DNA from: Squalus acanthias
Lineage: Eukaryota
NCBI GenBank assembly: GCA_030390025.1
Contig: CM059432.1
Coordinates: 37,760,001-37,824,000 of the forward strand
Length of the DNA stretch: 64,000 bases
Direction: 5' to 3'
Part shown: positions 33,374 to 37,954 of the stretch, piece after piece
Layout of the letters: each line of letters opens with the position of its first letter
How positions within the stretch are numbered: position 1 is the first letter of the stretch
Program-made: the position numbers and the translations under genes
The notes under the pieces: model-generated
The model's input: the letters and a program-made list of their open reading frames with translations, nothing else
Database searches by the model: none
Told to the model about the DNA's origin: nothing

Positions 33374-35018
33374 TGTAAGGGATTCCTGACCCTGCGTGTC
33401 TCGCAGCCTGTGAGATTCACGCGGCTCTGTGCAGCCTGTATGTCAGTGCGGGTCTAGGCCTTGCTGCCTGTTCTGGTCTCCAGCCAGTCTGGGAACACTA
33501 GACACACCTGTGAGTGGTTCGAATCACTCTCCCTTACGGTTCTAGACACTGGACTTAGATGCGAGAGCAGTAATGGAGATAAAACTCATGTAGACTTGGT
33601 TTGAATGGTACGAAATGGAAAATCTTTATTGCATGTTACTTAAGATTATGAAATACATGTCATAAGCACAGATTAATGACAGTACAATCTTACAAACAGT
33701 TATATAGTCGATCTTAGGGAAACGAGGAACGAACGGCACAAAATAAATAGGGGCACACATTACAAATATCCTTAATCCTTAAACCCTCCCCTATCAATAT
33801 CTATCCTAAACTAGATTCGTAGGATTTCGAGACTCATGCTCACCACTCGTGATAACTCGGAGAAATTCCGAATAGCTGATCGGATGTTTTTCACCGCAGC
33901 ACCCACGTGTCGGTCAGGAGATCTCCTGGTCCCACTTGTTTACTTGCTTCTGCTGCTCCGGCTAGCAGGCTGGACCGTCTGCTGTGATGAAGACCTGTGT
34001 TGGTTGGTTTAACAGGTACTCTTCGAGCACAGTTGTCGATATCGTCGATACGATATGTTTCCTTGCAAGTTCAAAGAAGTCTTCCTAGCAAGGAAAACTT
34101 GGACAGTCGACCTACAGGCGCGGTCGGGATTTACTGACCGTGGCGATGGATATGGTCTTCCTCTCTTCTCATCTCATCTCATCTTATCTCATCTCGGGCC
34201 TTCGGTTCCGCTGCCAGTTACCAACATAGGTCTTCGTTACGCGACACGAGGTAGATCCGAACGGATCAGAAAGTTCAACAGTCTTTTCAGAAGAGGCAAC
34301 AGGCAAGCAGGAGCGAGCCCAACTACGAGTACACAGGAGCAGCCACGAGGTTACGAATCGACCGGATAAAAGCACAGGAGCAAGAGAGAGAATGGACGGT
34401 TTGGAGCCTGCAATTATAGTGCAAAATCTTCCGTTTCCCGCCCAACTATAATGTCCATTCTTTTGTTTAAGGTCTGGCGCTCAAATGTCTTGTATGGGTG
34501 ATCTCCGTTCTTAATGGGTTTCGGGGCTACTCGTAAATGTCTGAGTACCTGTTAATATTTCTCCCATTGTTAAATCGGTCGGTGTTCTCCCTGGAGGGGT
34601 TTGGGGCTTCCAAGTGTCCTGTATAACTACCTGCTAACGGCTCTCTCATCGTAGAGTCGTTGGGATTTTACATATTAATGTCTTTTGGATGGGCCCTTGA
34701 TTCCTCGGTACAATGGCTTTCCTTTGTACCTGGGAGACCGATTTCAGTATCTATGTGTATACTGCAAACCCATAATGTCTTGTGTATTATCTTCACTGTG
34801 CTGAATCTTAATCGATCTTGCACAAATGTTTATTGGAACGCCATCTTGTCTGCCTGTTGAAAAGTCTAGAATGTTCTGTCACGAGGTGCGGTGGCCATTT
34901 TACAGGCTGCTTGTGTCCACTTTAAACCTGCCAGCATTCTACTGAAATAAAAGCTGTTTGAACGAAACTTTGTGTTTTCTCCTTATTAATGAAATCGCGA
35001 TATATTGCGAATTCTACA
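33374..35018 (-). mobile_element. Complete 1645-bp LTR (3' LTR of a minus-strand ERV- or Gypsy-like element)
   Basis: Ends TGTA..TACA. Minus-strand polypurine tract aacaggagggac (35019-35030) abuts the LTR start. Minus-strand AATAAA at 33625-33630. Left TSD CCGC at 33370-33373. Confidence 0.88.
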
Positions 35019-35086
35019 GTCCCTCCTGTTGATGCGAATAACTCCGCTTATCGTATCAAAAATCATAGTGGTGAGCAATGTTATCT

Positions 35087-36563
35087 CGATTTCATTAATA
35101 AGGAGAAAACACAAAGTTTCGTTCAAACAGCTTTTATTTCAGTAGAATGCTGGCAGGTTTAAAGTGGACACAAGCAGCCTGTAAAATGGCCACCGCACCT
35201 CGTGACAGAACATTCTAGACTTTTCAACAGGCAGACAAGATGGCGTTCCAATAAACATTTGTGCAAGATCGATTAAGATTCAGCACAGTGAAGATAATAC
35301 ACGAGACATTATGGGTTTGCAGTATACACATAGATACTGAAATCGGTCTCCCAGGTACAAAGGAAAGCCATTGTACCGAGGAATCAAGGGCCCATCCAAA
35401 AGACATTAATATGTAAAATCCCAACGACTCTACGATGAGAGAGCCGTTAGCAGGTAGTTATACAGGACACTTGGAAGCCCCAAACCCCTCCAGGGAGAAC
35501 ACCGACCGATTTAACAATGGGAGAAATATTAACAGGTACTCAGACATTTACGAGTAGCCCCGAAACCCATTAAGAACGGAGATCACCCATACAAGACATT
35601 TGAGCGCCAGACCTTAAACAAAAGAATGGACATTATAGTTGGGCGGGAAACGGAAGATTTTGCACTATAATTGCAGGCTCCAAACCGTCCATTATCTCTC
35701 TTGCTCCTGTGCTTTTATCCGGTCGATTCGTAACCTCGTGGCTGCTCCTGTGTACTCGTAGTTGGGCTCGCTCCTGCTTGCCTGTTGCCTCTTCTGAAAA
35801 GACTGTTGAACTTTCTGATCCGTTCGGATCTACCTCGTGTCGCGTAACGAAGACCTATGTTGGTAACTGGCAGCGGAACCGAAGGCCCGAGATGAGATAA
35901 GATGAGATGAGATGAGAAGAGAGGAAGACCATATCCATCGCCACGGTCAGTAAATCCCGACCGCGCCTGTAGGTCGACTGTCCAAGTTTTCCTTGCTAGG
36001 AAGACTTCTTTGAACTTGCAAGGAAACATATCGTATCGACGATATCGACAACTGTGCTCGAAGAGTACCTGTTAAACCAACCAACACAGGTCTTCATCAC
36101 AGCAGACGGTCCAGCCTGCTAGCCGGAGCAGCAGAAGCAAGTAAACAAGTGGGACCAGGAGATCTCCTGACCGACACGTGGGTGCTGCGGTGAAAAACAT
36201 CCGATCAGCTATTCGGAATTTCTCCGAGTTATCACGAGTGGTGAGCATGAGTCTCGAAATCCTACGAATCTAGTTTAGGATAGATATTGATAGGGGAGGG
36301 TTTAAGGATTAAGGATATTTGTAATGTGTGCCCCTATTTATTTTGTGCCGTTCGTTCCTCGTTTCCCTAAGATCGACTATATAACTGTTTGTAAGATTGT
36401 ACTGTCATTAATCTGTGCTTATGACATGTATTTCATAATCTTAAGTAACATGCAATAAAGATTTTCCATTTTGTACCATTCAAACCAAGTCTACATGAGT
36501 TTTATCTCCATTACTGCTCTCGCATCTAAGTCCAGTGTCTAGAACCGTAAGGGAGAGTGATTC
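35087..36563 (+). repeat. Inverted LTR copy (reverse complement of 33521-34997)
   Basis: 1477 bp; I saw three substitutions by eye. Mirrored ORFs in the ORF track (34055/35715, 34660/35224) agree. Confidence 0.95.
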
Positions 36564-37954
36564 TTGCATGTTACTTAAGATTATGAAATACATGTCATAA
36601 GCACAGATTAATGACAGTACAATCTTACAAACAGTTATATAGTCGATCTTAGGGAAACGAGGAACGAACGGCACAAAATAAATAGGGGCACACATTACAA
36701 ATATCCTTAATCCTTAAACCCTCCCCTATCAATATCTATCCTAAACTAGATTCGTAGGATTTCGAGACTCATGCTCACCACTCGTGATAACTCGGAGAAA
36801 TTCCGAATAGCTGATCGGATGTTTTTCACCGCAGCACCCACGTGTCGGTCAGGAGATCTCCTGGTCCCACTTGTTTACTTGCTTCTGCTGCTCCGGCTAG
36901 CAGGCTGGACCGTCTGCTGTGATGAAGACCTGTGTTGGTTGGTTTAACAGGTACTCTTCGAGCACAGTTGTCGATATCGTCGATACGATATGTTTCCTTG
37001 CAAGTTCAAAGAAGTCTTCCTAGCAAGGAAAACTTGGACAGTCGACCTACAGGCGCGGTCGGGATTTACTGACCGTGGCGATGGATATGGTCTTCCTCTC
37101 TTCTCATCTCATCTCATCTTATCTCATCTCGGGCCTTCGGTTCCGCTGCCAGTTACCAACATAGGTCTTCGTTACGCGACACGAGGTAGATCCGAACGGA
37201 TCAGAAAGTTCAACAGTCTTTTCAGAAGAGGCAACAGGCAAGCAGGAGCGAGCCCAACTACGGAGTACACAGGAGCAGCCACGAGGTTACGAATCGACCG
37301 GATAAAAGCACAGGAGCAAGAGAGAGAATGGACGGTTTGGAGCCTGCAATTATAGTGCAAAATCTTCCGTTTCCCGCCCAACTATAATGTCCATTCTTTT
37401 GTTTAAGGTCTGGCGCTCAAATGTCTTGTATGGGTGATCTCCGTTCTTAATGGGTTTCGGGGCTACTCGTAAATGTCTGAGTACCTGTTAATATTTCTCC
37501 CATTGTTAAATCGGTCGGTGTTCTCCCTGGAGGGGTTTGGGGCTTCCAAGTGTCCTGTATAACTACCTGCTAACGGCTCTCTCATCGTAGAGTCGTTGGG
37601 ATTTTACATATTAATGTCTTTTGGATGGGCCCTTGATTCCTCGGTACAATGGCTTTCCTTTGTACCTGGGAGACCGATTTCAGTATCTATGTGTATACTG
37701 CAAACCCATAATGTCTTGTGTATTATCTTCACTGTGCTGAATCTTAATCGATCTTGCACAAATGTTTATTGGAACGCCATCTTGTCTGCCTGTTGAAAAG
37801 TCTAGAATGTTCTGTCACGAGGTGCGGTGGCCATTTTACAGGCTGCTTGTGTCCACTTTAAACCTGCCAGCATTCTACTGAAATAAAAGCTGTTTGAACG
37901 AAACTTTGTGTTTTCTCCTTATTAATGAAATCACGATATATTGCGAATTCTACA
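36564..37954 (-). mobile_element. Truncated 5' LTR (direct copy of 33629-35018)
   Basis: Ends ..gcgaattctaca followed by TSD CCGC (37955-37958). One 1-bp insertion (~37262) and one substitution seen versus copy 1. Confidence 0.92.

Follow-up and report, generated by a model that had tools for sequence, protein, structure and literature searches.

How can a single retroelement insertion come to consist of three long terminal repeats (LTRs), the middle one inverted, without any coding region between them? The question is raised by positions 33374–37954 of a 64,000-nt stretch of the Squalus acanthias genome (the window; assembly GCA_030390025.1, contig CM059432.1, positions 37,760,001–37,824,000 of the forward strand); all coordinates below are those of the window. 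An earlier examination of its letters, here called the sequence-only reading, had described the block as an LTR element with its whole internal region replaced by an inverted third LTR. Self-comparison and exact alignment reproduced every coordinate of this direct-inverted-direct map, and the triplication is a single insertion bounded by one target-site duplication (TSD).

Architecture of the insertion

The block begins with copy A (33374–35018, minus strand), a complete LTR of 1645 bp with TGTA..TACA ends that would be the 3′ LTR if the minus strand is the sense strand, as we favour. Next to it lies a spacer of 68 bp (35019–35086, minus strand), a multi-copy sequence adjoining the LTR that probably derives from the internal region of the LTR family. 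Copy B (35087–36563, plus strand; 1477 bp) is the reverse complement of A 33521–34997 with three private substitutions, and copy C (36564–37954, minus strand; 1391 bp) is a direct copy of A 33629–35018 with one extra G, stopping exactly at the LTR boundary. Alignment places the motif CCGC, which occurs at 0.14 % of positions in the window, on either side of the block (33370–33373 and 37955–37958), in agreement with the sequence-only reading. Copy B has neither TG..CA ends nor a TSD of its own, there is no host DNA inside the A-B-C block, and the outer TSD is intact.

The insertion splits an older host repeat (32972–38089; left part 32972–33373, right part 37959–38089), which is delimited by imperfect 16-bp terminal inverted repeats (32972–32987 and 38074–38089) and is multi-copy by contig depth. 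Both features go along with the previous description of the host as a miniature inverted-repeat transposable element, a label that is itself plausible.

The three copies are nearly identical, as had been noticed: A and B differ by three substitutions over 1477 bp, A and C by one substitution and one insertion over 1390 bp, and B and C at four positions over 1369 bp, which gives pairwise divergences of 0.14–0.29 %. The ratio of observed to expected CpG is 0.84 in the LTR vs. 0.42 outside the block, and this retention of CpG fits a young insertion.

The TG..CA termini and the 4-bp TSD are both features of an integrase-inserted LTR retroelement, either an endogenous retrovirus (ERV) or a Ty3/Gypsy element. 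A Penelope- or DIRS-like identity was set aside on these same two features, which are general criteria against such elements. The length of the TSD lies within the 4–6 nt given for ERV-type elements (PMC5210030; here and below, all papers except PMC12067270 are cited for the accessible portions of their text).

The LTR family and its presence in other samples

Twenty-four sequencing runs shared words with the sequence, and the five that held more than half of the words came from two samples of one organism. Four runs of three samples, all of them available as contigs, were compared over region 32500–35115, i.e., up to 29 bp past the join between the spacer and copy B (junction 1): DNA runs X1 and X4, from one sample, DNA run X3, which was read to about 55 %, and run X9, whose RNA status is a guess. 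The contig features listed amounted to 24 of 730 loose ends, 32 of 18,093 pieces, 15 of 47 joints, 40 of 45 variants and 12 of 39 insertions or deletions.

In the DNA runs, 4729–7325 contig records aligned, with a summed depth of 43,000–756,000 in the LTR bins vs. 6.5–13 in the unique flank. The LTR family is thus very abundant, the summed depth not being a copy number. The bin of the spacer, which also holds 29 bp of B, reached a depth of 21,000–74,000, which indicates that the spacer is family sequence. An amplified solo LTR, already discarded by the sequence-only reading, is ruled out because the spacer is multi-copy family sequence and differs from the right host flank. The family is also well represented in run X9, where its contigs are enriched over 33820–34875.

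Each of the three DNA runs contained a contig, some 1.2 kb long and of single-copy depth, that aligns from approximately 33225 to exactly 33373, the last position before the LTR, and then continues for 1060–1062 letters off the LTR. Read as an empty allele, these contigs would end at 39018–39020, inside the strongest inverted repeat of the 2.5-kb right flank; likewise, the strongest inverted repeat of the left flank, a hairpin, contains the ends of the left-flank contigs of X1 and X3. Both DNA samples therefore probably lack the insertion and carry the empty allele, as judged from where these contigs align and how far they run on. Together with the TG..CA ends and the 4-bp duplication, this probable empty allele in two samples bears out the integrase-type insertion that had been proposed. 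Records running over the ends of the stretch numbered 2, 1, 1 and 0 in X1, X3, X4 and X9, respectively; one per DNA run is the left-flank contig, leaving one X1 record unexplained. The contig evidence also makes it probable that the LTR family is insertionally polymorphic.

There is no coding region at the locus, and none was linked to the abundant LTR family. Pfam assigned no family to any of the five element frames, Rfam gave no matches in the 64-kb window, and exact-pattern scans returned no matches in metagenome_contigs or viral_contigs. The 50-aa frame that crosses the spacer, used as a protein query, retrieved nothing among longer proteins, which is weak evidence, and the accessible text of PMC10435555 and PMC7947760 does not treat this LTR family.

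Native inverted repeats at both ends of copy B

The sequence-only reading had attributed the block to two template switches, of a replicative type (fork stalling and template switching, FoSTeS, or origin-dependent inverted-repeat amplification, ODIRA) or during reverse transcription. Two switches fit the junctions, and we found a sequence cause for each of them that had been overlooked, because both ends of copy B fall on native inverted repeats. What the two-switch scheme missed is a likely third step, a deletion of 108 bp.

Junction 1 is a fold-back site (34994–35090) with 89 nt between perfect arms. The centre of ATCG|CGAT marks the start of copy B. Imperfect pairing of the final 12 nt of the spacer with LTR 34998–35008 lengthens the perfect stem by 9 pairs. 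The partner of the spacer end at 34998–35010 has the joint best alignment score among LTR positions, and its duplex energy ranks 11th of 1632 windows. The right end of the LTR adjoining this junction (34991–35014) is itself an imperfect palindrome of 24 bp (10 of 12 pairs).

Junction 2, the join of B to C (36456–36564), is blunt, and no exact microhomology was found at it. Copy B ends at the exact centre (33520|33521) of a native imperfect palindrome of 18 bp (33512–33529; 8 of 9 pairs), and its last 9 nt match 33512–33520 at eight positions, the best of all plus-strand LTR positions. Among 1626 centres with 9-bp arms, 33520|33521 alone attains 8 matches; for arm lengths of 6, 10 and 12 bp, the centres that do as well number 9 of 1632, 5 of 1624 and 5 of 1620, respectively. 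The chance of finding a palindrome centre at junction 2 is therefore about 0.1–0.6 %, for a test picked after the junction was seen. The palindrome region is native to the family, as a contig from another sample matches 33473–33579 without difference. This palindrome contains GGTTCGAATC, which we take to resemble a tRNA T-loop or a Pol III B-box.

Only the B arm has the segment A 33521–33628, of 108 bp, which makes up the loop of the B-C palindrome; copy C starts (33629) inside a minus-strand AATAAA (33625–33630). The simplest account is that a second strand reversal at the palindrome generated a spacer-less B-C palindrome, and that 33521–33628 was then lost from one arm.

Common template and relative age of the copies

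A, B and C have, at each of positions 33636, 34892 and 34941, a letter found in only about 2–16 % of the family contig depth. These shared rare letters indicate that A, B and C stem from one template lineage and that B is not an unrelated member of the family. Private changes amount to none in A (in the shared part), three in B and two in C, those of C being a CpG-type substitution and an inserted G. The 40 listed family variants (of 45) include none of the four substitutions, and the 12 listed insertions or deletions (of 39) do not include the insertion. Three of the four substitutions are at CG/TG-type sites, two of them being derived CpG-type transitions, and two of the three private changes of B are not CpG decay. 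The three copies are about equally young. Under a simple Poisson model, a rearrangement as old as the insertion is favoured over one at a uniform later time by a likelihood ratio of 2.7.

Orientation of the element

The favoured orientation, with the minus strand as sense, is a reading short of proof. It is supported by a TATATAA (33706–33700) followed, 76 nt later, by the minus-strand AATAAA at 33625–33630, both near the left end; by a purine stretch plus AC immediately before the TG of the LTR; and by the absence at the locus of a TGG after the plus-strand CA. The stretch is short, with a 7-nt purine run and 9 purines of 10, so the polypurine tract (PPT) reported beside copy A by the sequence-only reading is present as a purine-rich sequence but weak, and the names PPT and U5 (unique 5′ region) hang on the minus-strand orientation. 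Foamy-like fish ERVs have a GGGTG motif at the border between PPT and LTR (PMC5210030); this motif is absent here, the locus reading GGGACTG on the minus strand.

The rival orientation is based on an AATAAA on the plus strand (34946–34951), 73 nt before the LTR end. Depth in run X9, per 1000 of DNA depth, was 8–25 over 33820–34875 vs. 1.8–6.2 in the LTR bins on either side, in a comparison of contigs that have neither strand nor level, with an RNA status that is guessed and a DNA control that itself ranges from 0.26 to 2.7. With the plus strand as sense, the spacer would become a non-standard primer site plus leader, the PPT claim would fall and the strand reversals would move to second-strand synthesis. 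Within the spacer read on the plus strand, no exact self-pairing partner of 7–13 nt was found in the LTR, only interrupted duplexes. No primer-binding site follows the 5′ LTR at the locus on either reading.

Aberrant reverse transcription as the favoured origin

What was observed is the arrangement of the block, the near-identity of its copies, the blunt join and an inverted repeat at each junction; from these observations we reconstruct, in five steps and with a proposed timing, an origin by two strand reversals during reverse transcription followed by the deletion of 108 bp from the centre. We favour this origin tentatively, with a confidence that falls somewhat short of an even chance. With the minus strand as sense, first-strand cDNA would have run through the LTR and 68 nt past the purine tract. 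Its 3′ end would then have folded back on the near-match at 34998–35008 and copied its own LTR backwards, generating B. Upon reaching the palindrome at 33512–33529, the 3′ end of B would have paired with opposite-sense, PPT-primed strong-stop DNA; this pairing would replace the normal strand transfer at the primer site, and copying of the strong-stop DNA to its defined end would make C stop at the LTR boundary. Both termini of the product would be normal integrase ends, allowing integration with a 4-bp duplication, such that gag-pol would never have been at the locus. Finally, the spacer-less B-C palindrome would have been cut at its tip, with the loss of 108 bp from one arm.

We favour reverse transcription because one event would explain the fold-back just past the LTR, the termination of C at the LTR boundary, the absence of the interior and the primer site, the lack of host DNA in the block and the about equal age of the copies. 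Self-priming of reverse transcriptase (RT) on hairpins is documented in vitro (PMC6088434), and integrated HIV-1 (human immunodeficiency virus type 1) proviruses with inversions or unequal LTRs do occur, inversions being found in 2 of 88 sequenced proviruses (PMC9278108). Having neither a coding region nor, on this reading, a primer site, the resulting three-LTR element is predicted to lead nowhere further.

Several points weigh against this origin. Self-primed cDNAs have been called dead-end products, are suppressed by nucleocapsid and went undetected in endogenous HIV-1 reactions (PMC6088434), and no precedent for the rescue at a palindrome and the subsequent integration was found in the literature examined. 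The same junction anatomy is seen in chromosomal inverted triplications, so it does not fix the stage at which the reversals took place (PMC10766186, PMC10766183, bioRxiv 2025.01.14.632981). The likelihood ratio of 2.7 is weak, rests on five changes and assumes that unlisted sites match the family, and the palindrome-centre test was chosen post hoc. The depth peak of X9 over 33820–34875 would fit a plus-strand transcript, as a hint only. Lastly, no independent contig spans either junction among those listed, from samples that apparently carry the empty allele.

Alternative origins

It is also quite possible, with a somewhat lower probability, that the block arose on the chromosome. A two-LTR provirus would have integrated first, and, 68 bp into it, a break or a stalled fork would have folded back by ODIRA, microhomology-mediated break-induced replication or fold-back repair; the LTR would then have been copied in reverse, with rejoining at the palindrome of the other LTR, or at that of the same LTR followed by LTR-LTR recombination, so that the interior was lost and the centre of the palindrome was deleted afterwards. 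The anatomy of such events, with junctions at closely spaced inverted repeats, is better documented: in yeast ODIRA, repeats plus spacer mostly span 40–80 bp (PMC10766183), compared with 89 nt between the perfect arms of junction 1, and secondary one-arm deletions at palindromic junctions have been described (PMC10766186; bioRxiv 2025.01.14.632981; PMC13334657). The two non-CpG private changes of B could reflect error-prone repair synthesis, and LTR-LTR recombination is common in fish ERV families, with 119 solo LTRs among 196 Bik-1 insertions (PMC12067270). Nevertheless, unless there was an additional recombination, the second switch must have gone to the other LTR, whereas in published models it goes back to the original template and the downstream DNA is kept (PMC13334657). 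Additionally, A and B have no shared derived change, which would require the event to have occurred soon after insertion (the ratio of 2.7 mentioned above), and 1.5 kb exceeds the size of small inverted triplications (about 160 bp).

Rather improbable is a sequencing or assembly artefact, in which a normal provirus or LTR would have been collapsed into a spurious triplication by long reads that fold back or are chimeric, or by chimeras from amplification. Natural inverted repeats are also places where chimeras arise. Inverted templates are known to cause difficulties in long-read sequencing (PMC10766183), and no independent contig was observed over either junction. The silence of the two DNA samples on the junctions is, however, expected from their apparently empty sites. 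Moreover, an artefact would have to produce two different junctions and the 108-bp deletion, and the CpG-type changes (three of four substitutions at CG/TG sites, two of them derived transitions) point to time spent in a methylated genome.

The sequence-only reading had offered, as an alternative, a non-autonomous, LTR-only class of mobile elements, in which the three-LTR unit itself would have been copied into many sites. The intact outer ends, the clean duplication and the abundance and probable insertional polymorphism of the family are compatible with such a class. Yet no multi-copy junction appeared among the listed contigs of the four runs of three samples, which is weak-to-moderate evidence against it, and none of the 15 listed joints (of 47) showed a strand change at 33521/33629. 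There is also no primer site on either reading, and a perfect hairpin RNA of 3 kb is a poor template. We thus consider a mobile three-LTR class very improbable and a one-off copying accident likely. Least probable of all is a nested or recombinant insertion, with B derived from another member of the family through insertion or recombination in reverse orientation: B does carry three changes absent from A, but it lacks TG..CA ends and a duplication of its own, has the same rare letters as A and C, and has no change that appears among the 40 listed variants (of 45).

Comparison with known systems

The block resembles inverted triplications (TRP/INV), such as yeast ODIRA products, human TRP/INV and DUP-TRP/INV-DUP rearrangements and the TRP/INVs of Aspergillus flavus, which share the direct-inverted-direct arrangement, are joined at short inverted repeats or palindromes already present in the sequence and have one junction widened by a one-arm deletion (PMC10766186, PMC10766183, bioRxiv 2025.01.14.632981). 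The locus displays two defining features of a TRP/INV, i.e., one segment in direct-inverted-direct order and a native inverted repeat or palindrome at the junctions. In contrast to those cases, it is confined to one TSD-bounded retroelement and is 1.5 kb in size, its third copy does not continue into what followed the first, and its interior is absent. In ODIRA, which involves a replication origin between the two repeats and a hairpin-capped intermediate, no DNA is lost, whereas C is followed here by the duplication and the host flank instead of the spacer. The locus is thus not a plain ODIRA product, because downstream DNA was lost and a secondary event would be needed.

Small inverted triplications (SITs) also resemble the block in having a DUP/IN/DUP order with a spacer and short junction homology, with a 3′-end fold-back as the proposed origin (PMC13334657). 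They average 148/160/148 bp, whereas the locus is about ten times larger, one of its junctions is blunt and downstream DNA is lost. Defective HIV-1 proviruses are likewise integrated, with unequal LTRs and loss of the interior blamed on errors of reverse transcription (PMC9278108); however, the accessible text describes no third, inverted LTR and invokes misalignment deletion, not fold-back, and the locus is in the germline. The three-LTR and tandem complexes of BARE1 and of Cassandra, a terminal-repeat retrotransposon in miniature, have more than two LTRs per insertion, template switching being one proposed origin (PMC7215508), but all of their LTRs are direct and enclose internal domains, whereas here the middle LTR is inverted and both inner copies are truncated. 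In RT self-priming, too, a free 3′ end of cDNA folds on itself and is extended (PMC6088434). That fold-back takes place at the complement of the transactivation response element (cTAR) before the first strand transfer, and not, as proposed here, 68 nt past the far end of an LTR with integration of the product. A search of the literature by title and opening of the abstract, in which older retrovirology is thinly covered, found no LTR-inverted LTR-LTR insertion.

The block looks real and is an unusual, defective insertion, probably a one-off. It is of value because it preserves well the trace of a template-switch accident for which each junction offers a sequence cause. Should the origin by reverse transcription hold and recur, self-primed cDNA, usually deemed a dead end, can be carried to completion and integrate, and retroelements can supply a genome with long palindromes ready-made. 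That there is such a recurrent escape route, with fold-back cDNA rescued by the LTR palindrome into integration-competent, LTR-only DNA bearing a hairpin, seems to us unlikely. Were it real, these molecules would enter the germ line at many sites, would give rise there to palindromes of kilobase size and could resolve into solo LTRs without a provirus ever having lain between them. The abundance of the family makes recurrence testable by a census of junctions.

Genomic setting

The insertion lies about 10.5 kb downstream of the last coding exon of a cyclin-domain gene. Two exons of this gene, presumably CABLES or CABLES-like, were located in 21056–22830, with a Pfam Cyclin_N frame at 21056–21871 and the last coding exon near 22740–22830. 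The locus is a dead, probably polymorphic insertion.

The window also contains a CT-rich tandem array of 2.3 kb with periods of 23–29 bp (4986–7398) and an array of about 41 copies with a 19-bp period (44988–45745). Short hairpin-type repeats were found at 32975–33036, 39004–39063, 8959–9108, 49539–49713 and 61137–61333, the last three being one palindromic family. Finally, there is a perfect tandem duplication of 61 bp at 39880–39999, possibly of recent origin.

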